Below are positions 1-64,000 of a stretch of 64,000 nucleotides of DNA, piece by piece (positions within the stretch are counted from its first letter, which is position 1; each line of letters opens with the position of its first letter). The translations under genes were made by a program, and so were the position numbers. This DNA is from a virus (Duplodnaviria > Heunggongvirae > Uroviricota > Caudoviricetes), in the IMG/VR virus record IMGVR_UViG_3300037189_028117, positions 18,977 through 82,976 of that record; one strand, written 5' to 3'. The notes under the pieces are model-generated. The model was not told the DNA's origin. It did not search any database and saw only the letters and a list, made by a program, of their open reading frames with translations.

Positions 1-819
1 TTTGAACCTATGCTTGCTCATAAATGGTCTGATTTGAAAGATTCATTTTCGTTTCCAGTTTATACTCAACCAAAACTTGATGGTATGAGATGTGTAATTT
101 CTAAAAATGGTATGTTTTCTAGAAATGGAAAACCAATTATTTCTGCCCCTCATATCTTTGAATCTGTCAAAAAACTATTTGAAGAAGAACCTAATCTTGT
201 TTTGGATGGAGAATTATATAATCATCAATTAAAACATAACTTTAATAAGATTATATCTTTGGCAAAAAAATCAAAACCAAAACCTGAAGATTTATCTGAA
301 TCAAAAAATCTTATTCAATATTTCATTTACGACTGTTTCTTAAATGAAAAATTTGAAAAAAGATTCAAAAAAATATCAGAGATTTCAAATACTTATAGTG
401 ATTTCGTTAAACTTACAGAAACACATCTTGTTAATTCCAATTCTGAATTGGACATGTTATATGAAAGATGGATGGAAGAAGGTTACGAAGGACAAATGAT
501 AAGAATAAATTCTAAATATGAAAACAAAAGATCAAAGTTTTTAATAAAAAGAAAAGAATTTATTGATGAAGAATTTGAAATAATTGATATTCTTGATGGC
601 AAAGGAAATAGAGAAGGTTTGGCTACAAAAGTTATCTTTAAAAATAAAGACGGTTCAACTTTTGATACTGGAGTTATAGGTAATGATGAATATACTTCAT
701 CTTTATTAAGTAATAAACTTAAATATATTGGTAAAAAAGCTACAGTTGTTTATCAAAACTTAACTCCTGACGGAGCACCTAGGTTTGGTAAAATGAAAAT
801 AATAAGGGACTATGAGTAA
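1..819 (+). CDS. ATP-dependent DNA ligase (5' partial; ORF open to window start)
   Basis: Adenylation motif I KxDGxR seen as 'TQPKLDGMRC'; length/architecture of phage T4/T7-type ligase; frame open from nt 1. Confidence 0.8.
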   Translation, partial: FEPMLAHKWSDLKDSFSFPVYTQPKLDGMRCVISKNGMFSRNGKPIISAPHIFESVKKLFEEEPNLVLDGELYNHQLKHNFNKIISLAKKSKPKPEDLSESKNLIQYFIYDCFLNEKFEKRFKKISEISNTYSDFVKLTETHLVNSNSELDMLYERWMEEGYEGQMIRINSKYENKRSKFLIKRKEFIDEEFEIIDILDGKGNREGLATKVIFKNKDGSTFDTGVIGNDEYTSSLLSNKLKYIGKKATVVYQNLTPDGAPRFGKMKIIRDYE

Positions 820-1282
820 ATTGGTTTCAAAAGCTGCTTGTGTTTTAATTCAAAACAATCATCTTTATCTTGGAGTTTCAAGAAAAAACAATAAAAATGA
901 TTGGGGTTTGCCTGGTGGTAAATCTGAAGGGGAAGAAACTTTAAAATCTACAGCCGTTAGAGAATTATTTGAAGAAACTGGATTGATAATATCTGAAGAT
1001 AATTTAACCGAAATATTTTCCAGACAAGATGAAGAGTTTAATGTTGTTACATATTGTTTAAATATACCTTTTTCAAATTTAAATCAAGAACCAAAACAAT
1101 GCGAAGATGGATTAGTTAATTGGGTAACACAAGAAGATTTAATAGATGGTACATTTGGAATTTATAACAAATTATTATTTGAAAAAATATATAAACAAAG
1201 ACTTCATAATATGAAATCAAAATTTGGAGAAGATTATGTTAATAAGCAAATCTCAGAATATAGAATCGTCTACGAGGATTAA
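812..1282 (+). CDS. NUDIX hydrolase
   Basis: Nudix box 'GGKSEGEETLKSTAVRELFEETGL' (GX5EX7REUXEEXGU); start overlaps ligase stop. Confidence 0.8.
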   Translation: MSKLVSKAACVLIQNNHLYLGVSRKNNKNDWGLPGGKSEGEETLKSTAVRELFEETGLIISEDNLTEIFSRQDEEFNVVTYCLNIPFSNLNQEPKQCEDGLVNWVTQEDLIDGTFGIYNKLLFEKIYKQRLHNMKSKFGEDYVNKQISEYRIVYED

Positions 1283-1526
1283 AATAATATATGAAGGTTT
1301 ATCTTTCGTTTTTAATTCTGAAGATGAGTTAAGATTATGGGAAACAAAATTAAAATCAAATGATTTCTATATTGTTATAGAGGATGATGTTTGGGTTGAC
1401 TTAGAAGATATTGTAATTGAAAACACAATACCTTATAATGACAAACCTATTTGTCCTTATTGTAAAGTTGGACCTTCTTTGGAAGATGAAATTTGCCCCG
1501 TTTGCGAATCAAAAATAAATATATGA
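1224..1526 (+). CDS. hypothetical small protein with C-terminal zinc ribbon
   Basis: 'CPYCKV...CPVCESK' CxxC-x15-CxxC; start uncertain (overlaps Nudix 3' end). Confidence 0.35.
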   Translation: MEKIMLISKSQNIESSTRIKIIYEGLSFVFNSEDELRLWETKLKSNDFYIVIEDDVWVDLEDIVIENTIPYNDKPICPYCKVGPSLEDEICPVCESKINI

Positions 1527-2332
1527 TAAGTTTACAAGAAAGACAAGAGCATTATGAAGAATCTTATGATTATAAAATCATACCAAATCTTCCTATCGTG
1601 ATAAAATCTTCAATAAGAAATTTTGATGTTGTAACTAAAAATATCAAAAATCCTTATTCAAAAGAATTATATTCAATATTACAAAATTCACTTTTATATA
1701 CTGTAAAAGAAATTGATGGTGCGGTTTTCGCTTATGCTTATAATGGAGAATTTTCCATTGTAATAACAAATGATATTAATTCTAATAAAATATTTTGTAA
1801 AAACAAAATACAAGAAATAAGCTCTACCGTAAGTAGTTTACTTACATCTGCATTTAATAAATATTATTTTGCTTCAGATAACCCACCGGATATAATTGGT
1901 GATGTTATTTTTAAAACAAAATCATTTGCTTTGCCTTCTATAAATGAAACTGTTAATTATTTAATTTTAAAGCAAGGACAATGTAATTATCATAATATTT
2001 CTTATGTTTCATATTTTGAATTAATAAAGCATTTTTCAAAAGACAGAGTTAAAGAAATATTGGAATCAAAATCAACGGATGACAAGATAGATATAATAAA
2101 AGATTATTTAGATTTAGATATTTATGATAAATATGATCAGTTTTTCTTAAATGGATGGTCATGCTATAAGGCTCCACAAATAATCTCTAGTGGAGATCAA
2201 GAAATAACCAAAAAACGTTGGTTGTGTGATCTTGATTTTAATTATTTTGTTGACAATCGAGACGGATTGAGGCATATTCTGATGACCGGACAAGACGTAT
2301 TTGTTCCCGAAAGAGATATTATAAAAAAGTAA
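1493..2332 (+). CDS. Thg1-like (tRNA-His guanylyltransferase fold) protein, probably catalytically altered
   Basis: Colinear resemblance to Thg1 N-terminal half ('IVIKSSIRNF' vs 'VVVRLDGRNF'; 'AVFAYAYNGEFSIV' vs 'VIAYGQSDEYSFV'; 'QGQCNYHNISY' vs 'QADCHINNLYN') but metal-binding Asp positions are Ser/Gly; from memory, not searched. Confidence 0.4.
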   Translation: MPRLRIKNKYMISLQERQEHYEESYDYKIIPNLPIVIKSSIRNFDVVTKNIKNPYSKELYSILQNSLLYTVKEIDGAVFAYAYNGEFSIVITNDINSNKIFCKNKIQEISSTVSSLLTSAFNKYYFASDNPPDIIGDVIFKTKSFALPSINETVNYLILKQGQCNYHNISYVSYFELIKHFSKDRVKEILESKSTDDKIDIIKDYLDLDIYDKYDQFFLNGWSCYKAPQIISSGDQEITKKRWLCDLDFNYFVDNRDGLRHILMTGQDVFVPERDIIKK

Positions 2333-2336
2333 AACT

Positions 2337-2729
2337 ATGAAAAAACACAACTTAGATGTATGTTGGATTCAATATTCAGAAAAAGAATTAGAAGAGAATG
2401 CTAAATTATTCAGCCAAGCAGAGTGGAATTGGATTTCGAGCCGTCAGATTATATCTCAAAGATTTATTGAAAAATATTCAGATAAAATAGATTGGGGTTG
2501 GATTTCTGAACGTCAGAATTTATCTGAAGAATTTATGGAAAAACACCAAAATAAAATTAGTTGGTGTTATATTTCTCGATATCAAAAATTATCAGAAAAG
2601 TTTATAATAAAACATATAGATAAAATTGAGATTGATTGTTTAATTAATAATAGTTATATTTCTAGAAAATTAAAAAAACAAATAAAAAAAGAATATGAAC
2701 AATTAAAGTTATTGAAAGAAATTATATGA
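2337..2729 (+). CDS. 23-aa-repeat family protein (3 repeats)
   Basis: N-cap 'MKKHNLDV..YSEKELEEN', repeats 'ISxRQ.LSE.FIEKYSDKIDW', C-cap '..LKLLKEII'; ATGA overlap with next gene. Confidence 0.7.
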   Translation: MKKHNLDVCWIQYSEKELEENAKLFSQAEWNWISSRQIISQRFIEKYSDKIDWGWISERQNLSEEFMEKHQNKISWCYISRYQKLSEKFIIKHIDKIEIDCLINNSYISRKLKKQIKKEYEQLKLLKEII

Positions 2730-3046
2730 ATGACACTGATATTATTAATAAATATGTAAACTGGACAAGATTATCATGCGATGATTCTTTATCGGAAGAA
2801 TTTATCGAAAAATATCAAGATAAACTTAATTGGATGAACATATCTCAATATCAAAAATTATCAGAAAAATTTATTGAAAAACATTCAGATATAATTGATT
2901 GGGAACTTATTTCTGAATTTCAAGATTTATCCGAAGAATTTATAAAAAAACACTTAGATAAAATTGATATTTATTATTTAATGGACAATAGAAATATTCC
3001 AGAATATATTAAAAAAGAAATTGAAAATTTAAAAGAAATTATATGA
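2726..3046 (+). CDS. 23-aa-repeat family protein (3 repeats, divergent N-cap)
   Basis: 'LSEEFIEKYQDKLNW / LSEKFIEKHSDIIDW / LSEEFIKKHLDKIDI', ends 'NLKEII', ATGA junction. Confidence 0.7.
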   Translation: MNDTDIINKYVNWTRLSCDDSLSEEFIEKYQDKLNWMNISQYQKLSEKFIEKHSDIIDWELISEFQDLSEEFIKKHLDKIDIYYLMDNRNIPEYIKKEIENLKEII

Positions 3047-3352
3047 AAAAACATAATTTATTTTTAATATACAAGAAATACCCTGAAGAAGAATTAGAGG
3101 GAAATATTAACTTGTTTAATGAACAGGATTGGAATTATATTTCTTATTATCAAGATTTATCTGAAGATTTTATAGAGAAGCATTTAGATGAAGTTGATTG
3201 GGATAATATTTCTTTTAACCAAAAGTTATCAGAATCATTTATAAAAAAACATATTAATAAAATTAACTTTACTTTATTAATGAGAAATAAAAAAATTCTT
3301 TAAATTTGAAAGATAAAATTAAAAAAGAAATTGAATTATTGAAAGAAATTAT
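3043..3352 (+). pseudogene. 23-aa-repeat family member interrupted by a frameshift in an A7 run (ORF as called ends 3303; family C-cap '...KIKKEIELLKEII' continues in -1 frame to 3352)
   Basis: N-cap 'MKKHNLFLIYKKYPEEELEGNINLF', 2 repeats, stop after 'MRNKKIL'; downstream frame encodes 'NSLNLKDKIKKEIELLKEII*' with ATGA into next gene. Confidence 0.5.
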
Positions 3353-3790
3353 ATGAATCATAATTTAGATTTAGTAAACAAAACATATTCTGAAAAAACA
3401 TTAGAAAAATACATAGAATACTTTAATGATGAAGATTGGGAAGATATTTCTTATTGTCAAGATTTATCGGAATCATTTATTGAAAAATATTTTGATAAAG
3501 TTGATTGGTATTATATTTCTGGATATCAAATATTATCTGAAAAATTCATAGAAAAACATTTAGATAAACTTGATTGGGAATACATTTATAGCAACCAAAG
3601 GTTATCAGAATCTTTCATAGAAAGAAATTTGTATAAAGTTAATTGGATTGAAATATCTTGCTATCAAAAATTATCCGAAAAATTTGTTAAAAAACACTTA
3701 AATAAATTAGACGTTAAACAACTAATGTATAATGATAAAATTTCTAATAAAATAAAAAAAGAAATCTCAAAATTAATTGAAATCATATAG
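3353..3790 (+). CDS. 23-aa-repeat family protein (4 repeats)
   Basis: 'MNHNLDL..YSEKTLEKYIEYF', four 'xYQxLSExFIEKxxDKxxW' units, ends 'LIEII' (TAG stop). Confidence 0.7.
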   Translation: MNHNLDLVNKTYSEKTLEKYIEYFNDEDWEDISYCQDLSESFIEKYFDKVDWYYISGYQILSEKFIEKHLDKLDWEYIYSNQRLSESFIERNLYKVNWIEISCYQKLSEKFVKKHLNKLDVKQLMYNDKISNKIKKEISKLIEII

Positions 3791-3996
3791 CTCAAACGAT
3801 TATCTTTAAACCAAGAAAAAACTCAAAAAAAGATCATTTAGAAGTTGACTTCCTCGACCAACGTGCTAAAACCAGAGGGTCGAAACGGAGACGGAACAAC
3901 ACCAACCCCGTTCAAAAAAACTTACATCAAACTTAACAACTTAACACTTATTATAATTTATAAACAAAAACACACAACAATAATGGAGAATAATTA

Positions 3997-5310
3997 ATGC
4001 TAACTGACGTACATACAATTAATCAATCTAAGTTTAAGGAACTTCTCAAGGTTCATATTCAATGTGAAGAAAATCTTCTCGTTATCGGTCCTTCTGGCGG
4101 TGGAAAAACCGTAATTGCAAAATCTGTTGCTGACCAACTTGGTTGCGACTTGGTTTATGTAAACCTTGCGGTCATGGAAAGAACTGACTTTCAGGGTTTC
4201 CCAGTATTAGCTGATGATAAGCAATCAGTTGATTATGCAACGCCAACCTTCCTTTGCTTTACGGATACCGCTGCTTCTCAAGAAATTTCAAAGCTTGAAC
4301 GTAACCGTTCTGCCCTTGATGAAAGCAAGGATAAGAAAGCAATTGCAGCTCTTGATGCTAGAATCAAGACTCTTAAGAATCAGGAAGAGGAGCAAAAGCT
4401 TATTAACCTCTACAATTCTGGAATTAGAACTCCAGACTTGGAAGCAAAGGTTAAGGCTGCTCTTGAAGAAAGAAAGAAGTCTCGTCCAATTGTTTTCCTT
4501 TTCGACGAAGTTGATAAGGCTGCAACGGAAACAAACCAGACTCTTCTTGAACTTCTTCAGTTCAAGTCTATCAACGGTCGTCCACTCAATGTAAAGGCTT
4601 GTATTCTTACAGCTAACTTACCAGATGAGCATGCTCATTCTAACCAAATCAGCCATGCAATTTCAAAGCGTTGTTCAACTTATCGTTTAGATATTGAATT
4701 TGATATTTGGCGTGACTGGGCATTTAAGAACGATGTTCACACCCATATTATTCAGTTCTTATCTTCGCATGATAAGCTTCTGTATCAGCCAGCACCAGAT
4801 GGTGACGCAACGGCTTATGCTCTTCCTTCTCCTCGTACATGGGTATCTGCAAGTGATAAACTTAAGACGCTCGATGCAATGAATGTTCCTGATAAGGATA
4901 GTCTTATGACTGCAATTATTGCTGGTAACGTTGGAGAAACAGCAGCGATTAAGTTTGCAAGTTGGTATGAACATTACCGTAAGTGGGACAGCGCAATTGA
5001 AGATCTTGTAGAAAAGGGTAAGGCCCCAGATTTATCAAAGGCTGGAGCACAAGAAGTTCTTATCGTTGCAATTGCAGCTTGTAGCAAGGTTTACACTGAG
5101 CTTAAGCCAAACAATGACGCTCGTATCAAGAAGGTTGTAAAGAATGTTTACAAGTGGCTTGGTACTCAATCAAAGGATGTTCAACACGGAGCTATCCGAA
5201 TTTCATTCGGTGGAGATTTCCATACTGCATACCAATATGGTTTCTCTAAGATTGAGGAATCAATGAATATCTTCAATGATCTAAAGAAGGATTTCGAAAA
5301 GTACAAGTAA
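3997..5310 (+). CDS. MoxR-like AAA+ ATPase
   Basis: Walker A 'VIGPSGGGKTV', Walker B 'IVFLFDEVDKA'; strong RBS; gene pair with downstream VWA protein; locally higher GC than surroundings. Confidence 0.8.
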   Translation: MLTDVHTINQSKFKELLKVHIQCEENLLVIGPSGGGKTVIAKSVADQLGCDLVYVNLAVMERTDFQGFPVLADDKQSVDYATPTFLCFTDTAASQEISKLERNRSALDESKDKKAIAALDARIKTLKNQEEEQKLINLYNSGIRTPDLEAKVKAALEERKKSRPIVFLFDEVDKAATETNQTLLELLQFKSINGRPLNVKACILTANLPDEHAHSNQISHAISKRCSTYRLDIEFDIWRDWAFKNDVHTHIIQFLSSHDKLLYQPAPDGDATAYALPSPRTWVSASDKLKTLDAMNVPDKDSLMTAIIAGNVGETAAIKFASWYEHYRKWDSAIEDLVEKGKAPDLSKAGAQEVLIVAIAACSKVYTELKPNNDARIKKVVKNVYKWLGTQSKDVQHGAIRISFGGDFHTAYQYGFSKIEESMNIFNDLKKDFEKYK

Positions 5311-5326
5311 TTTTCGAAAAAACACA

Positions 5327-5349
5327 GGGGGTAGGTTTTTCCTACCCCC
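5327..5349 (+). other. GC-rich hairpin between MoxR and VWA genes (no U-tract)
   Basis: 'gggggtagg-ttttt-cctaccccc' 9-bp stem; flanked by two copies of palindrome TTTTCGAAAA. Confidence 0.45.
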
Positions 5350-5384
5350 ATTCCCCCAATTCTATATATATTTTAAGAGGTAAA

Positions 5385-6836
5385 ATGGCAAATCTTCTCA
5401 ATGACCCAAAGAACATCGCTTCAGATGATTTCGAAGAACTTAATGAAAAACTAAAAATTGCGCAAATGTTAATTTCGCGCTCACCTGATAAGAAAGGTTT
5501 TCCTTTCGTATATTGTTTTACTGCTCAGAAAGAGCATGTTTTGGAAGAAATTAAAATTCCAATTTTTACAGACGAAAATGGTAATGAAGAATATTTTTAT
5601 ACCGCAGCTACTGACGGTAAGAAATATTATTGGTCACCTCAATTAATTCGTGAAATGACCCCGAGAGCATTAGCTATCATTATGGCTCATGAAACTTACC
5701 ATGTTGTTTTGCAACATTGTATTCCTGCAAGAACCGGAGGAAAATTAAATTCAATCTGGAATATTGCAGTAGATTACGTTGTTAACGGAATGATTGAACA
5801 TGACGTTCGTCAAAGTTGGCCAGGAATGAATACAAATGAAAATTTCCGAGGAAAGGAACATCCTCTTTGGAAAGAAAAGCTTGGAAAGCCTCTTTATTTT
5901 GATGAACTTCTTGACTCCATCAAAGAGCAAACTAAGAAAAAGAAAGCTGAAAGAGCTGCTTCTAAAAATGGAAAAGCTCAGAAGCCACCTAAAGCTCAAA
6001 AGAAAAAGACTCCACCATCAAAAGATGATTTAAGGTTTTATGCCGATTATTCTTTGTATGGTAAATCTGCCGAAGAGATTTATGACCAAATCATCAAGGC
6101 TATGGAAGATCTTACCAATGAAGAAATGCAAGAAGCTCTTGAAGGCATGGGTATATCTATGGACGAACATATGGAACATGGTTTGTCAAAGGGTCAATTG
6201 TTTAAAGAAATCCTCGATGCTGCAAGAAATGCAAAAAAGCTTGCTGGAACCGTACCTGGATCAATTGAAGATCAAATTCTAAAGCTTCAAGAACCAAAAC
6301 TATCTGCTTTTGATATTATCAGAAATGTTATTAGCAAAAGAAGAGATGAAAAAGGTAGAATCAATGATTGGTCAAGATTTAAGAGAAGAGGATTATCTCT
6401 CGGTCTTTATCAACCAAAGAAAAAGGATGATTACATTCGTTGGTGCGCATTCCTAGATACGTCTGGGTCTATGAGTCAAGATGACCTTACATATGCCGTA
6501 AGTCAGCTAAAATGTTTGGATGGTCGTTCGGAAGGGATTGTTATTCCTAATGATGCCCAACCTTACTGGGATAAAGCAACTGACATTAAAAGAGTTGGTG
6601 ACTTACAAAGAACAAAGATTGTTGGTCGTGGCGGAACGGTATTCAAGCAAATCTTTGATGAATTTCCTAAGAAAATGAAAAAGCCAATTGATGTATTAAT
6701 TATTCTAACCGACGGTGGAATTTTTGATATGCCAGAATTAAAGAGACCAAATGTTAAGGTTGTTTGGATTTTAACAAACGATATGAAGGGATTTAACCCA
6801 CCTTTCGGTGAAGTTGCTCCCCTCAGAACATACTAA
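5385..6836 (+). CDS. VWA-domain protein with N-terminal zincin-like (HEXXH) domain, MoxR partner
   Basis: 'MAHETYHVVLQH' HEXXH; MIDAS 'FLDTSGSMS'; classic AAA(MoxR)+VWA operon; RBS 'aagagg'. Confidence 0.75.
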   Translation: MANLLNDPKNIASDDFEELNEKLKIAQMLISRSPDKKGFPFVYCFTAQKEHVLEEIKIPIFTDENGNEEYFYTAATDGKKYYWSPQLIREMTPRALAIIMAHETYHVVLQHCIPARTGGKLNSIWNIAVDYVVNGMIEHDVRQSWPGMNTNENFRGKEHPLWKEKLGKPLYFDELLDSIKEQTKKKKAERAASKNGKAQKPPKAQKKKTPPSKDDLRFYADYSLYGKSAEEIYDQIIKAMEDLTNEEMQEALEGMGISMDEHMEHGLSKGQLFKEILDAARNAKKLAGTVPGSIEDQILKLQEPKLSAFDIIRNVISKRRDEKGRINDWSRFKRRGLSLGLYQPKKKDDYIRWCAFLDTSGSMSQDDLTYAVSQLKCLDGRSEGIVIPNDAQPYWDKATDIKRVGDLQRTKIVGRGGTVFKQIFDEFPKKMKKPIDVLIILTDGGIFDMPELKRPNVKVVWILTNDMKGFNPPFGEVAPLRTY

Positions 6837-7305: not shown

Positions 7306-7692
7306 ATGCTTATGGGGCATAATTTGAAGTTAAAAACACAAAAATATTCTGAAAAAGAATTGGAAAATGATATTAATTTATTTGATGAACAGGATTGGGT
7401 TTATATTTTTAAATATCAAAATCTATCTGAATGGTTTATTGAAAAACACTATGATAAAATTGATTGGAGTGAGATTTCTTGGTCCAAAAAATTATCTGAA
7501 GAATTTATTGAAAAATATTCAGATAAAGTTGATTGGTATTATATTTCTGGATATCAAAAATTATCTGAAAAATTTATAAAAAAACATATAGATAAAATTG
7601 ATATTGATTGGTTAATGGAAAATAACAAAATTTCTGAAAAATTAAAAAATAAAATTAAAAAAGAAATTAATTTATTGAAAGAAATTATATGA
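7306..7692 (+). CDS. 23-aa-repeat family protein (3 repeats)
   Basis: 'KYSEKELENDINLFDEQDW', repeats, 'INLLKEII', ATGA junction. Confidence 0.7.
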   Translation: MLMGHNLKLKTQKYSEKELENDINLFDEQDWVYIFKYQNLSEWFIEKHYDKIDWSEISWSKKLSEEFIEKYSDKVDWYYISGYQKLSEKFIKKHIDKIDIDWLMENNKISEKLKNKIKKEINLLKEII

Positions 7693-8060
7693 AAAGACAT
7701 AATTTAGATTTAGGTAGAATAAAATATTCTGAAAAAGAATTAGAAAAAAATATTAAATTATTTGATTCAATTGATTGGTATAATATTTCTAAAAATCAAA
7801 AATTATCTGAAGAATTTATAGATAAATATTCAAAGATAGTTAGCTGGAGAGATATTTCTTGTTGTCAATATTTATCAGAAGAATTTATGGAAAAACACCA
7901 AAATAAAATTAGTTGGTGTTATATTTCTTGCTGCCAAAAATTATCTGAAAAATTTATAACAAAACATATAGATAAAATTGATTTTGAAGGGTTAATGGAA
8001 AATAAATATATTTCTCATAAAATTAAAGAAGAAATTAAAATATTGAAAGAAATTATATGA
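7689..8060 (+). CDS. 23-aa-repeat family protein (3 repeats)
   Basis: 'MKRHNLDL..KYSEKELEKNIKLF', Cys-containing repeat variants 'CCQYLSEEFMEKHQNKISW', 'KILKEII'. Confidence 0.7.
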   Translation: MKRHNLDLGRIKYSEKELEKNIKLFDSIDWYNISKNQKLSEEFIDKYSKIVSWRDISCCQYLSEEFMEKHQNKISWCYISCCQKLSEKFITKHIDKIDFEGLMENKYISHKIKEEIKILKEII

Positions 8061-8356
8061 AACATAATTTAGATTTAAGTAATACAAAATATTCAGAAGA
8101 AACGTTAGAAAAATATATTAATTCATTTTCTGGATGGGATTGGTATTATATTTCTTACTGTCAAGTTTTATCTGAAAAGTTTATAGAAAAACATTCGGAT
8201 AAATTAAATTGGTATGAAATTTCTTTTTATCAAAAATTATCCGAAGAATTTATGAAAAAACATATTGATAAAATTGATATTGGTTGTTTAACGGAGAACA
8301 AAAATATTTCTGAAAAAATCAAACAAGAAATTCAAACTTTGAAAGAAATAATTTAA
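8057..8356 (+). CDS. 23-aa-repeat family protein (2 repeats)
   Basis: 'MKHNLDLSNTKYSEETLEKYINSF', 'IQTLKEII'. Confidence 0.7.
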   Translation: MKHNLDLSNTKYSEETLEKYINSFSGWDWYYISYCQVLSEKFIEKHSDKLNWYEISFYQKLSEEFMKKHIDKIDIGCLTENKNISEKIKQEIQTLKEII

Positions 8357-55472: not shown

Positions 55473-55473
55473 A

Positions 55474-56670
55474 ATGATTTCAGTACAAGATATAGAATAT
55501 TGCAAAGTTAAAGTTAATTACAAGGCTGATTTAGAAAAGATCAATTCAGTAAAAAATGATATTATTAAAAATTTTAGAAACATGAAAGTGCCAGGATTTA
55601 GAACTGGCAAAGCATCTGATCAAGCGGTTTTTTATCATTACAAATCGGAAATAAATAACGCTGTCAAAAATGAATTGATAAGTCAATCAAATGACGATAT
55701 TTTATTTGAAACTAAAATAAGACCAATAGGGCAACCACAAATCAAAAGTGTATTTTTTGATGGTAAAATATTCGAGTGTGAAATTGTCTATTCAAAAAAA
55801 CCAGATTTTGAATTAAAACAATATAAAGAACTTGAGGTTGTAGATCCACATATGGATTCTTCTGTAGAAGAAATTACAGAAAGCACAATTCAAGAATTAA
55901 GAAACCAATTTTCAGAAGTTAGAGCTTATGCCGATGAAGACTTTATACAAGATGGAGATAAAGTGACCTTATCATATAAGTTTGAGGATGGTACAGAAGA
56001 AGAAGGTACTTTATATACTGTTGGATCAAACGGGTTTCCTGGTTTCGACCAAAATATATATGGCATGTCTCCCGGAGACGAAAGAGATTTTCAAATTGAA
56101 TTAAATGGTAAAGTCCAAAAATGCCATGTTCAATTTCATATGGGTATGAAAAAATCTCCAGCTGAGCTAAATGATTCTTTGGCAATAAAAGTTGGTCTAC
56201 AAAATATAGATGAACTTTATGTTAATGTAAAGGCAATGTCTGAGCAACAATTTAAAGCACAAAAAGATGCAAAGATTGCAGATCAAATTATTAAAATCTT
56301 ATGTGATTCACATGAAATTGTATCTCCAGAATGGATTGTTGAGCTAGAAGCGCAACAATTAACATTAAAAGAAGGTCAAAAGTTTAGCGAACTTGATGAT
56401 AATGTAAAAAAACATTATTTAGAAAAAGCTGAAAAAAATGTTAAATTGGCATTTATTTTAGATTCTATTCAAATGGAAGAACCAGAATCTAAAATTTCAG
56501 AAAACGAAGCTCTTCAATTAATTCACCAAAACCTAACCCAAAGAGGTATTAAAGCGCAAGAATGGATGGAGAACGCTGCAAAAAATGGAATGTTGCAAGG
56601 TGTTCTAACAAAATTCAGAAATGATTTTACCATTCAATGGTTGGTGGATAATTGTAAAAAGATTTCCTAA
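55474..56670 (+). CDS. tig: trigger factor-like chaperone
   Basis: N-domain 'MKVPGFRTGKASDQAV' (TF 'GFRKGKVP'), PPIase-like 'FPGFDQNIYGMSPGDERDF' (TF 'IPGFEDGIKGHKAGEEF'); start taken at 'MISVQD'. Confidence 0.7.
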   Translation: MISVQDIEYCKVKVNYKADLEKINSVKNDIIKNFRNMKVPGFRTGKASDQAVFYHYKSEINNAVKNELISQSNDDILFETKIRPIGQPQIKSVFFDGKIFECEIVYSKKPDFELKQYKELEVVDPHMDSSVEEITESTIQELRNQFSEVRAYADEDFIQDGDKVTLSYKFEDGTEEEGTLYTVGSNGFPGFDQNIYGMSPGDERDFQIELNGKVQKCHVQFHMGMKKSPAELNDSLAIKVGLQNIDELYVNVKAMSEQQFKAQKDAKIADQIIKILCDSHEIVSPEWIVELEAQQLTLKEGQKFSELDDNVKKHYLEKAEKNVKLAFILDSIQMEEPESKISENEALQLIHQNLTQRGIKAQEWMENAAKNGMLQGVLTKFRNDFTIQWLVDNCKKIS

Positions 56671-57040: not shown

Positions 57041-57385
57041 ATGAAAAACATACCATGTAGAATAAAAACACATTCATCAAATAAGAGTGAAAACTTCTTT
57101 GATTTTTATTCTTTTGTTTATGATATTTCTTTTGTCAGAGAAAACATTGATAAAATGAAACCTTATGATTGGTATATGATAAGTCACACTCACGAGTTAG
57201 ATATGGATTTCATTCAAACTTATGAAGACAAACTAGTTCTTGATGCTTTGTGTAGATTTCAAAATTTAAGCGAAGAATTTATAAGAAAAAATATATCATT
57301 AATAAATATTAATGATCTTAAAGTAAATAAGAATATTGATGAAAAAATAATTGAAGAAATTAAATTATTAAAAGATATTATATAG
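57041..57385 (+). CDS. 23-aa-repeat family protein (1 repeat, divergent N-term)
   Basis: 'CRFQNLSEEFIRKNISLININDLKVNKNIDEKIIEEIKLLKDII'. Confidence 0.6.
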   Translation: MKNIPCRIKTHSSNKSENFFDFYSFVYDISFVRENIDKMKPYDWYMISHTHELDMDFIQTYEDKLVLDALCRFQNLSEEFIRKNISLININDLKVNKNIDEKIIEEIKLLKDII

Positions 57386-57690: not shown

Positions 57691-57706
57691 TTTTAGAAAG
57701 AAAAAT

Positions 57707-60700
57707 ATGTCAGAAAGTTACCAAAAAATAGGTTATGTTTCACTACATAACCATACAACATTTTCTATATCCGATAGTTTAATATCTCCAAAAGATTTAA
57801 TTAAAAGAACTGCTGAATTAGGCCAAAAGGCAGTTGCTGTCACGGATCACGGATCTTTGGCTGGTCTTTGGGATGCTTTTCAAGAAGCAAAGAAAACCAA
57901 AGTAAAACTAATTCCAGGAATAGAAATGTATTTCATGGATGATCTCAACTCTGATACGGAGAGAATGAGGCATTTAATTTTGCTTTCTAAAAATGAAGTT
58001 GGTTACCGTAATTTGCTTTTATTAACTGCAGAATCTTTTGATAATAAAAAAATCGTTCATAAAAAAGTCGTACCAAGAGCTACATGGGAAACTTTAGAAA
58101 AATATAAAGAAGGTTTGATTTGTTCAACAGCTTGCGCAAATGGCATTCTTGGTTCATTAATTAATGAAAAGAAATATGACGAAGCTTTCAAAACAGCTGA
58201 AAGATTAAAAAGTATATTTGGTGATGATTTTGCGATTGAATTGCAAGCTCATGCTTTAAAAAGAAAAGCTACATCTTACTCTGGAGAAATTGATCAAGTT
58301 TCCACAAATAAAAGATTAAGAGAAATTGCCGAAAAACTTGATGTAAAATGTATTGTTACAACAAACGCACATTATGTTCACCCCGAACAACATGAAGCTC
58401 ATGATGTTTTGTTAGCTATAGCTTCTGGTCAACCAATTAATTCAGGCCAAAGGCTTAAATATGAAAATGTACCTCTACACATAAGAGATGAAGAAGATAT
58501 TTTCACAAAACTTTCAAGAATAACTTATGACAAAGAGTTTTCAAAAAAATGCATTGAAAACTCAAAATACTTTGCTGATAAATGTGAATTTCCAGAATGG
58601 ATTGATCCTAAATATTCAAATCCATCCGGAAAAGAACTTCCACACTTTCCAGTTAAAGACCAGGAAGATTATTCTGAATTTTTAGAATGGAATAAAGAAA
58701 ATCAAATAGAAGGAAAACAAGAAGATCACATGTATCTTAGATATAGATGTGAAATTGGTCTTAAAAAGAAAGTTCCTGAAGAAAAACACCAAATATACAA
58801 AGAAAGATTAGAATCTGAACTTTACGTATTAGAACATCACGATTTCTCATCATACATGTTAATCGTTATGGATTTTCTTGAATATGCAAGAAAAAATAAT
58901 ATGTCTGTTGGCGTTGGTCGTGGATCTGCTGGCGGAGTTTTAACTTGTTATTTGGTAGACATTCATATTTCAGACCCAATCAAATATGGTTTAATATTTG
59001 AAAGATTTCATAACATAGAAAAAGCTTCATTTCCCGATTTAGATTGTGACGTAGCTTCAGAATCTAAAGAGGCTGTTGAAAACTATTTAATTAAAAAATA
59101 TGGCAAAGATAACGTAGCAAATGTTTCCAATATTTCATCTTTAACTCCAAAAGTTTACATGAGATCAATTGCTAGAACATTTGTTTATGGAGGAGATAGA
59201 AAAACTGCAGTTTCAATAGGTACAAATCTTGCTGATGCTGTTCCGGCAGATCTTAAAGAAGCTCCAATAGATGATATTATCTCTTTGCCATTAATTTCGG
59301 AATATGTAAAGCCAAAAGAAGAAGGTGGGGCTGGGTATACTGAAGTAAGTAAATACGCTAAAGATTTAAGCAAGCAATATGCAGCTTGGTCAACTCATGC
59401 TGCTGGTTTGGTTATAGGTAAAAGGCCATTAAAAGGACTTGTTCCTTTAAGGAAGGATAAAGATAATAATATAGCTTTAGAATTTGAAAAAGAAAGAGCT
59501 GAAGCAAATGGTCTTGTAAAAATGGATATTCTTGGGTTATCAACTCTTGATGTTATTGACGAAACAAGAAGATTAATTAAATCTTTAGGAAAAGAAGTTC
59601 CAAAACCAATTTCTGAATTTGACTATGATGTTTATGATAAAAAAACATACGATTTGATTTCTGAAGGAAGAACTCTTTGCGTTTTTCAATTGGGAACCTC
59701 AGCTGGAACAATAGAGTTATGTAAAAGAATTAAACCAAAATCTATAGAAGATATTGCTGTAATAAATAGTTTGGCTAGACCTTCAGCTAGAGATTTTAGA
59801 GATACATTTATAAAAACAAGAGATGGTGAGTTGGAGATAAAGTTGCTACATCCTCTATTGGCAAATGCTTTGAATCCAACTTATGGTTTTCCTATTTATG
59901 AAGAAAGCTTGATGTTTATTACAAAAGACGTTGCAAATTTCAGTCTTCTTGATTCTGATAGATGTAGAAAAATAACAAAAGCAAAGGGTAAGGATAAGTC
60001 AAAATTAGAGGCTTTGAAAAAAGATTTTATTGACGGTGCGGCTAAAAATGGTGTTTCCGAAGAAAAAGCAAAAGAAATATTTGCTTTCATTGAGGGTTAT
60101 AGCGCATATGGATTTAATAAATCTCACGCAATTTTCTATTCTTACCTTGGGTTTTATACAGCTTATTTAAAAGCAAATTATCCTTTAGAATATTTAGTTT
60201 CGTGTTTAAAACACGAAGTCAATTCTAATGCAAAAATTGCAGAAGATAATATTGCAAAAATAAAAGAAGAAATTAGAGCAATGAAGGTTAAAATTGTTCC
60301 ACCTGATATTAATACATCAGATACTTCTTATAAAATAATTGACAGCAATACATTGATGACAGGTTTAGATGCAATAAAATTTATGGGCAAAGATGCAATG
60401 CCAGAGATTTTATCAAAAAGACCATTTTCTTCATTTGAAGATTTCTTAACTAGAATTGATGGGTCAAAGGTTCGTGCTCCAGCCATTCAAGCCCTTGCTG
60501 CTGCTGGATGTTTAGATTCCTTAGGAGTTTCGAGGAAAATGATTTTCTTGTATGCCTCTGATTATAAGAAAAAACTGGGAGCATTCCTTAAAAAGAAAGA
60601 AAAGTCTCCAAATAAATATACAGAATTTAATTATCCATGGCCTGAAGAGCCAGATTGGACAATTCCAGAAAAATGCGCTTTGGAAACTTTTTATATCGGA

Positions 60701-61306
60701 GAATATTTAGCTGGTGATAGAATTGCTGCGTATAATGGTTTCTTTATGAGGGGTTCTATGGCATTTTCTCATTTAGAGAAATTATTACCAAGACCACCAG
60801 AGAGTTTCTCGGAATCCGATTTAAAAAAGTATAATAAAAAAGTAAATCTATTACAAGGTGAAGTTAAGTCAATTTTTGAATTTAAAGTAAAGAAAGAAGA
60901 TTCAAAAATGAGAGGTCAATTAATGGCCAAGATAGCCATAGAAGATATTTATGGTTCTCAAATTGTTTTGACTTGTTTTCCGGATGGATGGGAAAATTTA
61001 AAAAAGAAATGTCTTAAAATGTCCGGTGGAAAGCAAAAATTTGATGTAGGTTGCGGTATTTACTTTAATGGCAATCTTAGTTGGTATAATGGGGAATTGG
61101 GTATAACTTATGAGGATGTGGTAAAACTTTGTTCTCCACCTCAATTGCCTGCGGATTTAAAGGCAAAGAAAATAAATATGAGAGATAAATCTTTAAAAGA
61201 AGAAACGGTTGTTTTTGATGAAGATGATCGAAATATTCTTCTGGAAGATATTGAACAAGAATTAATTGAAATGGGAAACTCTGGGTTTGAAGATGAAGAT
61301 CTTTAA
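57707..61306 (+). CDS. dnaE: DNA polymerase III alpha subunit (DnaE-type, PHP domain)
   Basis: PHP 'YVSLHNHTTFSISDS', 'AVTDHGSL', polymerase core colinear with DnaE, 1199 aa. Confidence 0.9.
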   Translation: MSESYQKIGYVSLHNHTTFSISDSLISPKDLIKRTAELGQKAVAVTDHGSLAGLWDAFQEAKKTKVKLIPGIEMYFMDDLNSDTERMRHLILLSKNEVGYRNLLLLTAESFDNKKIVHKKVVPRATWETLEKYKEGLICSTACANGILGSLINEKKYDEAFKTAERLKSIFGDDFAIELQAHALKRKATSYSGEIDQVSTNKRLREIAEKLDVKCIVTTNAHYVHPEQHEAHDVLLAIASGQPINSGQRLKYENVPLHIRDEEDIFTKLSRITYDKEFSKKCIENSKYFADKCEFPEWIDPKYSNPSGKELPHFPVKDQEDYSEFLEWNKENQIEGKQEDHMYLRYRCEIGLKKKVPEEKHQIYKERLESELYVLEHHDFSSYMLIVMDFLEYARKNNMSVGVGRGSAGGVLTCYLVDIHISDPIKYGLIFERFHNIEKASFPDLDCDVASESKEAVENYLIKKYGKDNVANVSNISSLTPKVYMRSIARTFVYGGDRKTAVSIGTNLADAVPADLKEAPIDDIISLPLISEYVKPKEEGGAGYTEVSKYAKDLSKQYAAWSTHAAGLVIGKRPLKGLVPLRKDKDNNIALEFEKERAEANGLVKMDILGLSTLDVIDETRRLIKSLGKEVPKPISEFDYDVYDKKTYDLISEGRTLCVFQLGTSAGTIELCKRIKPKSIEDIAVINSLARPSARDFRDTFIKTRDGELEIKLLHPLLANALNPTYGFPIYEESLMFITKDVANFSLLDSDRCRKITKAKGKDKSKLEALKKDFIDGAAKNGVSEEKAKEIFAFIEGYSAYGFNKSHAIFYSYLGFYTAYLKANYPLEYLVSCLKHEVNSNAKIAEDNIAKIKEEIRAMKVKIVPPDINTSDTSYKIIDSNTLMTGLDAIKFMGKDAMPEILSKRPFSSFEDFLTRIDGSKVRAPAIQALAAAGCLDSLGVSRKMIFLYASDYKKKLGAFLKKKEKSPNKYTEFNYPWPEEPDWTIPEKCALETFYIGEYLAGDRIAAYNGFFMRGSMAFSHLEKLLPRPPESFSESDLKKYNKKVNLLQGEVKSIFEFKVKKEDSKMRGQLMAKIAIEDIYGSQIVLTCFPDGWENLKKKCLKMSGGKQKFDVGCGIYFNGNLSWYNGELGITYEDVVKLCSPPQLPADLKAKKINMRDKSLKEETVVFDEDDRNILLEDIEQELIEMGNSGFEDEDL

Positions 61307-61763
61307 AAAACTTATAAAATATATACGTAAATCTAAATTAGATTTAATTGATAAAAAATACTCCGAAGAAGAGTTAGAAAAACATGCTGATTCATTTAAT
61401 GAATTGGATTGGTATTATATTTCTAAATATCAAAGTTTATCAGAATCATTTATAAAAAAATATTCACATAAATTTTGGTGGGGTGATATTTCTGCTTATC
61501 AAAGTTTATCCGAAAAATTTATTGAAAAATACTCAGATAAAGTTAATTGGACTTACATATCTAGATATCAAGAGTTATCTGAAACATTTGTAGAAAAATA
61601 TTTAGATAAAGTTAATTGGATTCACATTTCTTATTCTCAAAAATTATCCGAGCCATTTATAAAAAAATATTTTAATAAAATTGATGTTGATTGTTTAATG
61701 AATAATAAATATATCTCAAAAGAATTCAAAAATGAAATAAAAACATTAAAAGAAATAATATGA
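61293..61763 (+). CDS. 23-aa-repeat family protein (4 repeats)
   Basis: start overlaps dnaE 3' end; caps and repeats canonical. Confidence 0.7.
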   Translation: MKIFKKLIKYIRKSKLDLIDKKYSEEELEKHADSFNELDWYYISKYQSLSESFIKKYSHKFWWGDISAYQSLSEKFIEKYSDKVNWTYISRYQELSETFVEKYLDKVNWIHISYSQKLSEPFIKKYFNKIDVDCLMNNKYISKEFKNEIKTLKEII

Positions 61764-62062
61764 AAAAACATAATTTGCATTTGATGTATAAAAAGTATTC
61801 AGAAAAAGATTTGGAATATAATTGTCATTTATTTAATAATGATGATTGGTATCGTATTTCTTATTATCAAAATTTATCTGAAAAATTCATAGAAAAATAT
61901 TTAGATAAATTAGATTGGAAATGGATATCTAGATTTCAAAAACTATCAGAAGAATTTATCAAAAAACACGTAAATAAAATTGATATTGATTTTTTAATGA
62001 AAAACAATGATATTTCAGAAAAAACAAAAAAAGAAATAGAAACATTAAAAGAGATTATATGA
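61760..62062 (+). CDS. 23-aa-repeat family protein (2 repeats)
   Basis: canonical. Confidence 0.7.
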   Translation: MKKHNLHLMYKKYSEKDLEYNCHLFNNDDWYRISYYQNLSEKFIEKYLDKLDWKWISRFQKLSEEFIKKHVNKIDIDFLMKNNDISEKTKKEIETLKEII

Positions 62063-62499
62063 ATGAACAGAATGTAGACTTACATAATAAAAGATATTCT
62101 GAAGAAGAATTAGAAAATAATATTAATTTATTTGATCTTGATCATTGGTATATTTTATGTTATAGACAAAAACTATCCGAAAACTTTATAGAAAAATATT
62201 CAGATAAAATTCATTGGGAGGAAATTTCTTGGGCCCAAGATTTGTCAGAGTCATTTATTGAAAAATATTCAAATAAAGTTAAATGGTTTGAAATTAGCAT
62301 ATATCAGGAATTATCAGAACAATTTATAGAAAAACATTCAGATAAAGTTAATTGGAATGAAATTTCAAGATGCCAAAAGCTATCTGAAGGATTTATTAAA
62401 AAACATATAAATAAAATAAAAATATCTTCTTTAATAGATAATGAAAATATTTCAGAAAAAACTAAAGAAGAAATAAAAACATTGAAAGAAATTATATGA
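62059..62499 (+). CDS. 23-aa-repeat family protein (4 repeats)
   Basis: canonical. Confidence 0.7.
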   Translation: MNEQNVDLHNKRYSEEELENNINLFDLDHWYILCYRQKLSENFIEKYSDKIHWEEISWAQDLSESFIEKYSNKVKWFEISIYQELSEQFIEKHSDKVNWNEISRCQKLSEGFIKKHINKIKISSLIDNENISEKTKEEIKTLKEII

Positions 62500-62789
62500 A
62501 ATATTTTGTAATCATATTATTTAATGAGACTTGGGATTATGATATATCACTGGCAACAAAAAATCATAGCGACATAAATTGCGATTTTGTGTCAGAAGAA
62601 AACGTAGATGCTTTAACGTTTGAATATTTCGAAGCAAAAAATTTATATCATTATTGGAAGGATTGTGATGTAGAAAAAATCGTTCTTGATGTTTATTTGG
62701 TTGAAGCAAATAAAGATAATAAAGTAAAACAAATATTAAAAATAAAAGAAGAAATTGAAGAAATAAAAACGTTGAAAGAAATTATATGA
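62496..62789 (+). CDS. hypothetical protein ending 'IKTLKEII' (non-repeat cassette inside family cluster)
   Basis: junction and tail shared, body unrelated. Confidence 0.45.
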   Translation: MKYFVIILFNETWDYDISLATKNHSDINCDFVSEENVDALTFEYFEAKNLYHYWKDCDVEKIVLDVYLVEANKDNKVKQILKIKEEIEEIKTLKEII

Positions 62790-63100
62790 AAAAACATAAT
62801 TTAGATTTAATACGAAAAAAATATTCGGAAAAAGAATTGGAAGAATATATTAAATTCTTTAGTGATTATGATTTGGAGGTAATTTCTTATACTCAAAATT
62901 TATCCGAAGAATTCATTGAGAAATATTCAGATAAAGTTGATTGGTATTATATTTCTTCTCGACAAAATTTATCTGAAGAATTTATAAGAAAACATATAAA
63001 TAAAATTCATATTAGTTGGTTGATGAATAATAATTTTATTTCTAGAAAATTAAAAAATAAAATTAAAAAAGAAATAAAAACATTGAAAGAAATTATATGA
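62786..63100 (+). CDS. 23-aa-repeat family protein (2 repeats)
   Basis: canonical. Confidence 0.7.
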   Translation: MKKHNLDLIRKKYSEKELEEYIKFFSDYDLEVISYTQNLSEEFIEKYSDKVDWYYISSRQNLSEEFIRKHINKIHISWLMNNNFISRKLKNKIKKEIKTLKEII

Positions 63101-63465
63101 AACATAACTTAGATTTAAAATTTGAAATATATTCTGAAAAAGAATTAGAAAATAATATGCATTTATTTGATTTATATGATTGGGACTGCATTTGTAGGTA
63201 TCAGATGTTATCTGAAAGATTTATAGAAAAATATTCAGATGAAGTTAGTTGGGGTTTAATTTGTTTTTATCAAAATTTATCTGAAAAATTTATAGAAAAA
63301 TATTCAGATAAAGTTGATTGGTATTATATTTCTTATTCTCAAAAGTTATCTGAAAATTTTATAGAGAAACACATAAATGAAATTAATATTAATAAGTTAA
63401 TGCAAAACAAAAATATTTCAAAACAAATAATAGAAGAACTAAAAACTTTAAAAGATATAATATAG
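63097..63465 (+). CDS. 23-aa-repeat family protein (3 repeats)
   Basis: canonical, 'LKTLKDII' TAG stop. Confidence 0.7.
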   Translation: MKHNLDLKFEIYSEKELENNMHLFDLYDWDCICRYQMLSERFIEKYSDEVSWGLICFYQNLSEKFIEKYSDKVDWYYISYSQKLSENFIEKHINEININKLMQNKNISKQIIEELKTLKDII

Positions 63466-63467
63466 AA

Positions 63468-63905
63468 ATGATTTATACTAATGAAAATATTTTATATTCA
63501 AATTACCAATATATAGCCCATCAATGCAACTGCGTTTCGAAAAACTCTGCAGGTTTGGCCAAATCGATATTTGAAAAATATACTTACTCAAATATTTACC
63601 AAAATAGAGAAAAGAACGATTCTCCCGGAAATATAATAATTTCAGGAAATGGCGATGATCAAAGATATATAATTAATATGCTTTCTCAATTTTATCCAGG
63701 AACGCCAAAGTATGAAACATATGAACAAAGATTAGGTTGGTTTAAATCCTGTATACTTAAAATATCCGAAAGTAAAAATATTAACCAAATAGCTTTTCCG
63801 TTTAATATTGGTTGCGGTTTGGCCGGAGGAAAATGGGAAGATTATGAAAATTTAATATCTTTTCTTGATAATTATTGCGAAGTTTTCATATGCAAAATTC
63901 AATGA
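63468..63905 (+). CDS. TARG1/OARD1-like macro domain protein
   Basis: 'IAHQCNCVSKNSAGLAKSIFEKY' vs TARG1 '[23 protein letters not shown]'; 'FPFNIGCGLAGGKWEDYENL' vs 'MPRIGCGLDRLQWENV'. Confidence 0.6.
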   Translation: MIYTNENILYSNYQYIAHQCNCVSKNSAGLAKSIFEKYTYSNIYQNREKNDSPGNIIISGNGDDQRYIINMLSQFYPGTPKYETYEQRLGWFKSCILKISESKNINQIAFPFNIGCGLAGGKWEDYENLISFLDNYCEVFICKIQ

Positions 63906-63918
63906 TATATATCCGTTT

Positions 63919-64000
63919 ATGAAGTGTAGCAACTGCGGAGTTATAATTCCACCAGAATGGAAAAAAGTTATAGAAAAAAACACATGCCCAAATTGTGACA
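63919..64000 (+). CDS. zinc-ribbon protein, 3' partial at window end
   Basis: 'MKCSNCGVIIPPEWKKVIEKNTCPNCD'. Confidence 0.3.
   Translation, partial: MKCSNCGVIIPPEWKKVIEKNTCPNCD

Follow-up and report, generated by a model that had tools for sequence, protein, structure and literature searches.

Among the jumbo phages described so far, subgroup 3.2, typified by Bacillus phage G, is defined by a DNA polymerase III (Pol III) alpha subunit with a PHP domain (Iyer et al. 2021, PMC7824862), and among the huge phages GD_PHAGE_CIR_35_878 and GD_PHAGE_CIR_35_52 are listed as Judaphage (Al-Shayeb et al. 2020, PMC7162821). We have analysed a stretch of viral DNA of 64,000 nucleotides (IMG/VR record IMGVR_UViG_3300037189_028117, positions 18,977 to 82,976), hereafter the window, which encodes a DnaE-type polymerase of this kind together with genes for recombination, translation, RNA repair and host takeover. 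The results make us confident that the window is the non-structural arm, transcribed in one direction, of a large tailed double-stranded DNA phage (Caudoviricetes), related to the Judaphages and, via its capsid module, to phage G. This reading draws on the gene content, on the layout along one strand, on the linkage to structural genes and on a gene order held in common with a relative of 437.8 kb. The phage is undescribed, yet each of its features falls within the kinds known for huge phages, and jumbo phages defined by DnaE are already described. To the huge phages that use DnaE, a lineage connecting the Judaphages with phage G, it adds an apparently rare genome with a low guanine plus cytosine (GC) content of 26–30%, and the locus is useful as a well-anchored reference for the clade and as a clear negative on FtsK packaging.

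The gene map was obtained by greedy calling of open reading frames (ORFs) under the standard code. All predicted proteins, concatenated into pseudo-proteins, were searched against Pfam, with PHROGs searches limited to the window genes without a clear Pfam assignment, and with sequence searches of the PDB and NCBIfam carried out for selected proteins. Coordinates refer to the window, and strands to the window strand, unless another locus is named: L007 is the piece upstream of the window, L003, L011, L022, L027 and L030 are pieces of a 51-kb contig which continues it, and L024 is a piece of the relative, of 437,772 bp. The map comprises ~107 genes, which occupy 95% of the window; 106 of them are on the + strand, as are all window genes given below with a single exception, and 4-base overlaps of the ATGA type are found at 35 of the 105 consecutive + strand junctions. 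The GC content varies between 22 and 39%, being mostly ~26%, the cumulative GC skew climbs monotonically along the window, and the standard genetic code fits the stop codons observed (49 TAA, 46 TGA and 6 TAG). No tRNA was found in the window or in the other loci of the phage that were examined, an Rfam scan of the window returned no families, and a megablast comparison of 24 kb of the window with GenBank phages yielded no matches. Likewise, families of capsid, terminase, portal or tail proteins were not matched in the window, by Pfam on every gene or by PHROGs on the genes without a clear Pfam assignment.

An earlier note on this stretch had described an almost complete confinement to one strand with ATGA couplings and a lack of capsid, terminase and tail genes inside the window, and both descriptions agree with these counts and scans. 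The genes that it had listed, from the ligase through to DnaE, are borne out by Pfam, PHROGs and PDB matches, except for an HU-like protein (18153–18476), whose similarity to Pfam Bac_DNA_binding (E 0.005, 17.5 bits against a cut-off of 22.4, profile positions 5–56 only) falls below threshold and for which neither the PDB nor NCBIfam gave an HU match. Its label of a replication/repair block is correct in that such genes are present, but too narrow, as genes of a repeat-protein family and genes for translation, RNA repair, chaperones or proteases and metabolism are interleaved with them.

The polymerase gene (57707–61306) encodes a DnaE-type Pol III alpha of 1199 residues, with matches to Pfam PHP, DNA_pol3_alpha, DNA_pol3_finger and HHH_6, arranged as PHP, palm, finger and helix-hairpin-helix regions, and the protein matches Thermus aquaticus Pol III alpha (2hpi) at 3e-131. 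In respect to 2hpi, the PDxD motif of the palm is kept (PDLDCD against PDIDTD), and so are eight of the nine T. aquaticus PHP metal ligands, the remaining one having changed from Asp to Asn within TTNAHY. In two DnaE relatives we have noted that P0027 retains this Asp (STDVHY) and that P0100, encoded by the 437,772-bp relative, is devoid of both Asp and His (ATNSQY); given that the ligands vary in this way, PHP activity is probably not uniform across the clade. The 260 C-terminal residues find no match among GenBank phages. A Pol III alpha of the bacterial type and with PHP at its N-terminus, the polymerase that defines subgroup 3.2, is thus what was found in a polymerase survey covering ~119 kb, and the proposal of the earlier note that DnaE is a hallmark of certain huge-phage clades is in line both with the definition of subgroup 3.2 by Iyer et al. 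2021 and with the contigs of this DnaE clade, which measure up to 0.47 Mb.

Several further genes act on DNA. The window opens within an ATP-dependent DNA ligase (10–819; Pfam DNA_ligase_A_M 4e-18, DNA_ligase_OB_2), of which it holds the 269 C-terminal residues, the start lying upstream, and which amounts to 364 residues at full length, as read in L007. A TopA-like type IA DNA topoisomerase with a zinc ribbon is encoded at 36267–38189 (Pfam Topoisom_bac 4e-115, Toprim, Zn_ribbon_Top1). The primase is split: a stand-alone DnaG-type zinc ribbon without Toprim (48740–49414; Pfam Zn_ribbon_DnaG 1e-16) is encoded ~22 kb away from a separate gene for the DNAG_N/Toprim core (L003 8579–9352), an arrangement also kept in the 437,772-bp relative (L024), and primase zinc ribbons encoded on their own are known from earlier work on jumbo phages (PMC7824862). 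Next to the zinc ribbon are SbcD (49389–50564; Pfam Metallophos 1e-12) and SbcC/Rad50 (50561–52723), the latter with weak Pfam matches (SbcC_Walker_B, SMC_N) and a match to Rad50 structures at 7.5e-15 that includes both ATPase halves; its long coiled-coil middle contains CEHC, corresponding to the CxxC hook of SbcCD/Mre11-Rad50, a complex which is near-universal in jumbo phages (PMC7824862). These are followed by a conserved protein with Pfam CHB_HEX_C_1/Fn3-associated domains (53553–54527), found at the equivalent position in the 437-kb relative (L024 4879–5865), and by a Cas4-like nuclease of the PD-(D/E)XK type (54567–55472; Pfam PDDEXK_1 1e-30, Cas_Cas4 4e-8). The FtsK-like ATPase (22153–23157, 334 residues; Pfam FtsK_SpoIIIE 2e-28, FtsK_alpha; phrog_1358 2e-72; 2ius 2e-43) consists of the FtsK/SpoIIIE alpha-beta motor only: it ends with the motor, having neither a membrane anchor nor the gamma domain that reads KOPS (FtsK-orienting polar sequences), and is accordingly not a complete cellular FtsK. 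Downstream of the window, the 51-kb contig encodes, in this order, RecA, RuvC, DnaJ, the primase core with Toprim/DNAG_N and a protein with sigma-70 region 4. Across the ~119 kb examined of the contig of 171,650 bp to which the window belongs, neither a clamp or clamp loader nor DnaQ, a replicative helicase, a single-stranded DNA-binding protein (SSB) or a family A or B polymerase was recognised, and an NCBIfam search with ten unassigned proteins gave no clamp, clamp loader, helicase or SSB.

This larger contig was identified by exact-protein look-ups in Joint Genome Institute (JGI), Logan and ENA data; an exact copy of DnaE was not found in IMG/VR, and a literature search returned no paper with the sample accessions. 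Proteins encoded upstream of the window (L007), inside it, and next to the terminase and capsid genes on both flanks have one and the same longest contig, of 171,650 bp, and since proteins of both parts share it, the structural module sits on one molecule with the replication arm. In JGI sample 3300032307 the sequence of the window is carried by two contigs, one of 82 kb that ends at position 62,942 and one of 51,361 bp that starts at 62,921, the latter being IMGVR_UViG_3300032307_000952, classed as viral in IMG/VR; the identity to the window is 99.99% for the 82-kb contig and 99.9% over 1,080 nt for the 51-kb contig. The join is further supported by an independent genome, that of 437,772 bp, in which the gene order across the equivalent junction is identical.

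All sizeable ORFs of the 51-kb contig are on the + strand. The sigma gene is followed by genes for several large acidic proteins with no assignment, by those for a CCA-adding enzyme and a homing endonuclease of the GIY-YIG type, and then by the large terminase (L011 9995–12253, 752 residues; phrog_675 3e-51, Pfam GpA_ATPase, Intein_splicing), which starts at ~83,059 in window-equivalent coordinates, that is 19.1 kb past the window end, and in which Walker A reads KGRQIGGT and Walker B FYDE, a mini-intein being placed directly after Walker B. An HNH/EndoVII-like endonuclease gene on the + strand separates it from the portal gene (L011 12985–15942, + strand, window-equivalent start ~86,049; 985 residues, phrog_16240 3e-46). 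Following the portal are a baseplate-hub lysozyme with an SLT domain (phrog_196 7e-33), a protein of 1558 residues in which a prohead-protease domain is embedded (L022 13717–18393) and an HK97-type major capsid protein of 358 residues (L027 16488–17564, window-equivalent ~108,646, i.e. ~45 kb past the window; phrog_2522 1.5e-77), all on the + strand. Terminase, portal and HK97-type capsid, linked on a single molecule, are the attributes of the Caudoviricetes. The capsid and terminase that the earlier note had proposed to look for with hidden Markov models (HMMs) are hence present, 19–45 kb downstream of the window and not inside it, and its estimate of a genome well over 150 kb is in agreement with the 171,650 bp of this contig and with related DnaE or terminase contigs of up to 471 kb.

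The relatives of these proteins delineate the lineage. DnaE has homologues in at least 120 cluster representatives at 48–69% identity, the 69% match being the nearest among 5.8 billion proteins; among the matches listed, the longest contigs of the clade reach 435–471 kb with none above 0.5 Mb, and several DnaE genes carry inteins. The terminase has 897 homologues at E≤1e-10, on contigs of up to 458,729 bp, and in most of the best 120 of these 897 an intein occupies the identical site; the terminase of the 437,772-bp relative does not figure among these 120. Altogether, contigs with a related DnaE or terminase range from below 10 kb to 471 kb, many exceeding 200 kb. Relatives of both proteins co-occur on contigs of 88,604, 35,199, 239,683 and 435,004 bp at similar levels of identity, which indicates that polymerase and terminase have travelled together in one lineage; on the last of these, the uncultured IMGVR_UViG_3300027740_000003 (435,004 bp), terminase and DnaE are respectively 58–61% and 57% identical to those studied here. 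The 90%-identity clusters of the phage's proteins contain only 1–4 members each, and from this, together with a nearest DnaE at 69%, we conclude that the phage is rare and undescribed.

The most informative relative is GCA_902730365.1, a single contig of 437,772 bp whose DnaE (P0100) is 51% identical. Over the stretch corresponding to 48.7–64 kb of the window and the next 10 kb, ~14 genes follow the same order in both: primase zinc ribbon, SbcD, SbcC, Fn3-associated protein, PD-(D/E)XK nuclease, trigger factor and DnaE, and thereafter RecA, RuvC, DnaJ, Toprim primase, sigma region 4 protein and a protein of 534 residues. The two differ in length (437,772 against 171,650 bp) and in GC content (~33–35% against 26–30% here). 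A replication-recombination core of 14 genes, with the primase split in both, is common to genomes as different in size as ~170 kb and 438 kb. GCA_902730365.1 is a candidate Judaphage genome, and through it the Judaphage huge phages appear to be relatives of the lineage studied here.

Phage G (Donellivirus gee, 497,513 bp) is linked by another set of genes. Its capsid protein gp27 is 53% identical and the closest among GenBank phages, and it also provides the best GenBank-phage matches for the portal (34–37%) and for the prohead-protease domain (36%). The order terminase, portal, capsid is alike in both, as are the presence of a Pol III alpha with PHP and of a tryptophan-repeat family (gp558–563 in phage G), and in both selfish elements interrupt essential genes. 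On the other hand, DnaE of phage G is intron-split, only 23–31% identical and set in a neighbourhood that is not syntenic, and its terminase gives no match at E 1e-5. For DnaE (28–33%) and terminase (24%) the best GenBank-phage matches are instead to siphoviruses of ~50 kb, several of them with DnaE, such as Bacillus Andromeda-like phages, vB_BpsS phages of Bacillus pseudalcaliphilus and others; five (Rossellomorea phiT1, vB_BpsS-36, PK-1, Jayan and PS1) figure in the lists of both proteins. These siphoviruses differ from the present phage in their small genomes, in the very low identity and in being devoid of the extended host-like gene set.

Other interpretations have been weighed against these data. 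Many genes of bacterial housekeeping type are encoded (DnaE, TopA, ClpP, trigger factor, IF3, S21, DnaJ and RecA), as would be expected from a megaplasmid or another non-viral mobile element, or from a stretch of a reduced bacterium or symbiont, in which case the link to phage genes would be an assembly chimera; indeed, the JGI assembly does break at 62,921–62,942, inside a cluster of repeat genes. However, the window itself crosses this break, proteins from both of its sides are found on one contig of 171,650 bp, the 437,772-bp genome has the order DnaE–RecA–RuvC–DnaJ–primase–sigma across the equivalent junction, and relatives of DnaE and terminase recur jointly on the same contigs. Moreover, scans of the window for tRNA, Rfam and Pfam matches gave no rRNA, tRNA, ribosomal operon, partition or conjugation genes, and among the matches listed no contig of the DnaE clade exceeds 0.47 Mb, which makes a non-viral origin very unlikely; a plasmid or symbiont region with rRNA or ribosomal operons, the finding that the earlier note regarded as fatal to its own interpretation, was looked for and did not emerge. 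A large eukaryotic DNA virus, similar to the nucleocytoplasmic large DNA viruses, has a negligible probability. It would account for the tryptophan-repeat family, common with entomopoxviruses, pithoviruses and marseilleviruses (template modelling (TM) score 0.8–0.88, 34–43% identity), but the same family is present in Bacillus phage G, and a bacterial host is indicated by the terminase, portal and HK97-type capsid, by translation factors of bacterial type, by the protein with sigma-70 region 4 and by the ATGA coupling.

A further issue is how the genome is packaged, as the earlier note had asked whether the FtsK-like ATPase takes the place of a terminase. Membrane-containing viruses package their DNA with motors of the FtsK/HerA/A32 type, and the window does encode a true FtsK/SpoIIIE motor (22153–23157) while having no terminase within its 64 kb. 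Nevertheless, a canonical terminase with Walker A and Walker B (phrog_675, 3e-51) and a portal are encoded 19–25 kb downstream, and the HK97-type capsid 45 kb downstream, on one contig, and the query is thus answered in the negative: because terminase and portal are present, packaging is taken to be terminase-based and the FtsK-like protein to be accessory. In agreement, PHROGs categorises the family matched by the latter, phrog_1358, under moron/host takeover, and FtsK/HerA-type packaging is unknown in large prokaryotic viruses (PMC7824862), which also counts against it; packaging by the FtsK-like ATPase is therefore regarded as extremely improbable.

Taking the window as part of a tailed phage, its genes suggest a plausible replication cycle. 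The genome would be copied by the phage's own DnaE-type Pol III alpha, in which eight of nine PHP ligands are kept, with priming presumably carried out by a DnaG divided between two proteins, one with the zinc ribbon and one with the Toprim core, and with assistance from the type IA topoisomerase and the ATP-dependent ligase. RecA, SbcCD, the Cas4-like nuclease and RuvC would serve in what is probably recombination-dependent replication and in the processing of concatemers, which in turn may be packaged by a conventional terminase-portal motor, the FtsK-like protein acting as an accessory DNA translocase and not as the packaging motor. A more specific version of this scheme is a pared-down and partly host-dependent replisome, with a stand-alone DnaE proofread by its PHP domain, a split primase, no phage-encoded clamp, clamp loader, DnaQ or replicative helicase, and the FtsK motor handling large replicating or concatemeric genomes; we consider this version unlikely, and if true it would stand as a replication strategy of its own beside the four paradigms so far known for jumbo phages. 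Some points weigh against our overall assignment. The genome is not closed, and the examined sequence amounts to ~119 kb of the 171,650-bp contig. The role of DnaE as sole replicase is presumed, ~55 kb of the contig being outside the sequence examined. Also, membership of the Judaphages is suggested by 51% identity in DnaE and by synteny, whereas that clade is defined by a terminase tree.

A large share of this genome is taken by one repeat-protein family, by genes for translation and RNA repair, and by selfish elements (inteins and homing endonucleases). The repeat family, detected with a local HMM, accounts for 29 of the 107 window genes (27%), which form ~12 clusters (2337–3790, 7306–8356, 11348–11938, 13644–14156, 16152–16892, 17746–18159, 26725–28156, 29309–30269, 33002–34057, 57041–57385, 61266–62499 and 62786–63465). 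As seen in the alignment, its members have a conserved N-terminus, 2–7 copies of a repeat of 23 residues with the consensus DWxxISxxQxLSExFIEKxxDK, and a C-terminus ending in LKEII, and in many of these genes the stop codon overlaps the next ATG. No Pfam model matches the family, and Pfam searches with the longest relatives yielded no informative domain. The AlphaFold2 model is an alpha-solenoid (predicted local distance difference test, pLDDT, 94.7) which retrieved nothing from the PDB with Foldseek; in BFVD its fold is matched at TM 0.76–0.88 and 34–43% identity by MSV027, MSV205, AMV029 and phage G gp558–563, and matches extend, beside the entomopoxvirus "tryptophan repeat gene family", to several giant-virus proteins. 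A profile search identified 9,897 related cluster representatives and, considering this number and the match to the entomopoxvirus and phage G family, the tryptophan-repeat family is both widespread and already named. No paralogs were found in the loci of relatives that were read, among them 23.5 kb of the 437,772-bp relative.

The repeat genes also affect how the locus is assembled. The JGI break at 62,921–62,942 falls within a cluster of near-identical tryptophan-repeat genes, and the first 548 nt of the 51-kb contig match, in addition, window positions 7513–8062 at 78% identity, from which it is apparent that these paralogs fragment assemblies. Two pairs of overlapping short ORFs, g30 with g31 (16595–16892) and g60 with g61 (33379–33815), each resemble one repeat gene split by a frameshift, which suggests decay or phase variation within the family. 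The ending L(K/Q)(E/D)II, with an ATGA overlap after it, is found as well in small ORFs outside the family HMM. It marks the 3' ends of many genes, for example at 10572, 11351, 12144, 14491, 17749, 26728, 34350 and 62789, and the 18-mer TTGAAAGAAATTATATGA is present 10 times: such endings could be a shared C-terminal module, or could reflect a nucleotide-level constraint on the coupled stop-start junction.

The second group of abundant genes relates to translation and presumably serves to capture ribosomes and nascent chains. It includes ribosomal protein S21 (39498–39755; Pfam Ribosomal_S21 4e-13, phrog_21469), translation initiation factor IF3 (44871–45413; Pfam IF3_N, IF3_C), a peptide deformylase with a SEC-C motif (45410–45922; Pfam Pep_deformylase, SEC-C) and trigger factor (55453–56670; Pfam Trigger_N 4e-20, Trigger_C 3e-6), as well as DnaJ downstream of the window. 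The pair formed by IF3 and deformylase (44871–45922) matches phrog_9787 at 2e-48, and for trigger factor the only matches among GenBank phage records have 21–31% identity. IF3, S21 and deformylase are known from huge phages (PMC7162821). RNA repair is represented by a Thg1-like 3'-5' nucleotidyltransferase for tRNA 5'-end repair (1493–2332; Pfam Thg1 1e-11), called as 269 residues in L007, by a T4 Rnl1-type RNA ligase (12223–13398; Pfam RNA_lig_T4_1 3e-14), by the RNA-ligase-associated Pol-beta nucleotidyltransferase RlaP (28419–29312; Pfam RlaP 3e-17) and by two metallophosphoesterases, with the CCA-adding enzyme found downstream of the window; a repair set of RlaP, Rnl and Thg1 is known from jumbo phages (PMC7824862). 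In fact, every category of non-replication genes in the window is already described in huge or jumbo phages (PMC7162821, PMC7824862).

A third set of proteins is assigned to ADP-ribose/NAD conflict, and is composed of a macro-domain protein (63468–63905; Pfam Macro 8e-5, named O-acetyl-ADP-ribose deacetylase by JGI), NADAR and a Nudix hydrolase (812–1282; Pfam NUDIX 1e-11). Proteolysis is represented by a ClpP protease subunit (19328–19948; Pfam CLP_protease 1e-56) and AAA+ proteins, one of which is of the CDC48/FtsH type (38200–39501; NCBIfam), and a second ClpP paralog of 194 residues is encoded together with an HNH endonuclease before the ligase, in the 4.7 kb upstream of the window (L007 1–4688). 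The ClpP gene of the window is preceded by that of a DksA/TraR-type zinc-finger protein (18963–19313; Pfam zf-dskA_traR 4e-12). Thioredoxin and an HNH endonuclease are further encoded in the window. The sole minus-strand gene encodes a Dps/ferritin-like protein (8353–8880, - strand; Pfam Ferritin 5e-9, DUF5856). A YqiJ/NfeD-like membrane protein (30434–30997; Pfam YqiJ_N) is followed by a flotillin/SPFH protein of 613 residues (31091–32932; Pfam Band_7, flotillin in the JGI naming) with a long coiled region rich in Ala, Glu and Lys, a pair which resembles the bacterial yqiJK operon. A MoxR-like AAA ATPase (3997–5310; Pfam AAA, AAA_5, bpMoxR) is paired with a DUF2201 metallopeptidase/VWA protein (5385–6836; Pfam DUF2201_N, DUF2201), and the island that they form (3997–6836) has a GC content of 38.6% against ~26% elsewhere; it may be a recent acquisition.

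Clues on the host come from an auxiliary metabolic gene and from the cultured relatives. The best match of the alanine dehydrogenase (34362–35411; Pfam AlaDh_PNT_C 1e-63, AlaDh_PNT_N 4e-38) is only 60% identical, and its best-scoring named homologues are mostly from Bacillota or their relatives (51–58%), among them Ruminococcus, Lachnospiraceae, Halobacillus, Haloplasma and Streptococcus. A GTDB scan with this protein, in which the peptide patterns used were not conserved ones, gave one match of 51%, in a metagenome-assembled genome of the Acholeplasmataceae. Among cultured phages, those closest in capsid, DnaE and terminase have hosts of the Bacillus group. These homologues and relatives weakly point to a low-GC Gram-positive bacterium, as a hint on either the host or the gene donor and not as a prediction.

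The structural region carries several selfish elements. Residues 300–707 of the portal (~400 residues) look like an inserted selfish element, and the terminase, portal and protease genes bearing inserts are flanked by genes for endonucleases of the GIY-YIG, HNH/EndoVII and LAGLIDADG types. CRISPR-Cas genes (L027 18481–20543 and L030 ~11130–12714, at ~47.7–51.4 kb of the contig) come immediately behind the capsid gene and an endonuclease gene of the LAGLIDADG type. The 1.8 kb with which the 51-kb contig ends showed no CRISPR array, and Csy genes were not seen before the contig end. The genes that are present encode Cas1 (Pfam 8.8e-17) and a Cas2-HD protein of type I-F (Cas3_I-F_Cas2 1e-31, Cas3_HD 1e-7), and a separate ORF with the motifs of a DEAD/DEAH-box helicase (GPAGCGKT, DEFH and SAT), which is likely the Cas3 helicase, reaches the end of the contig.

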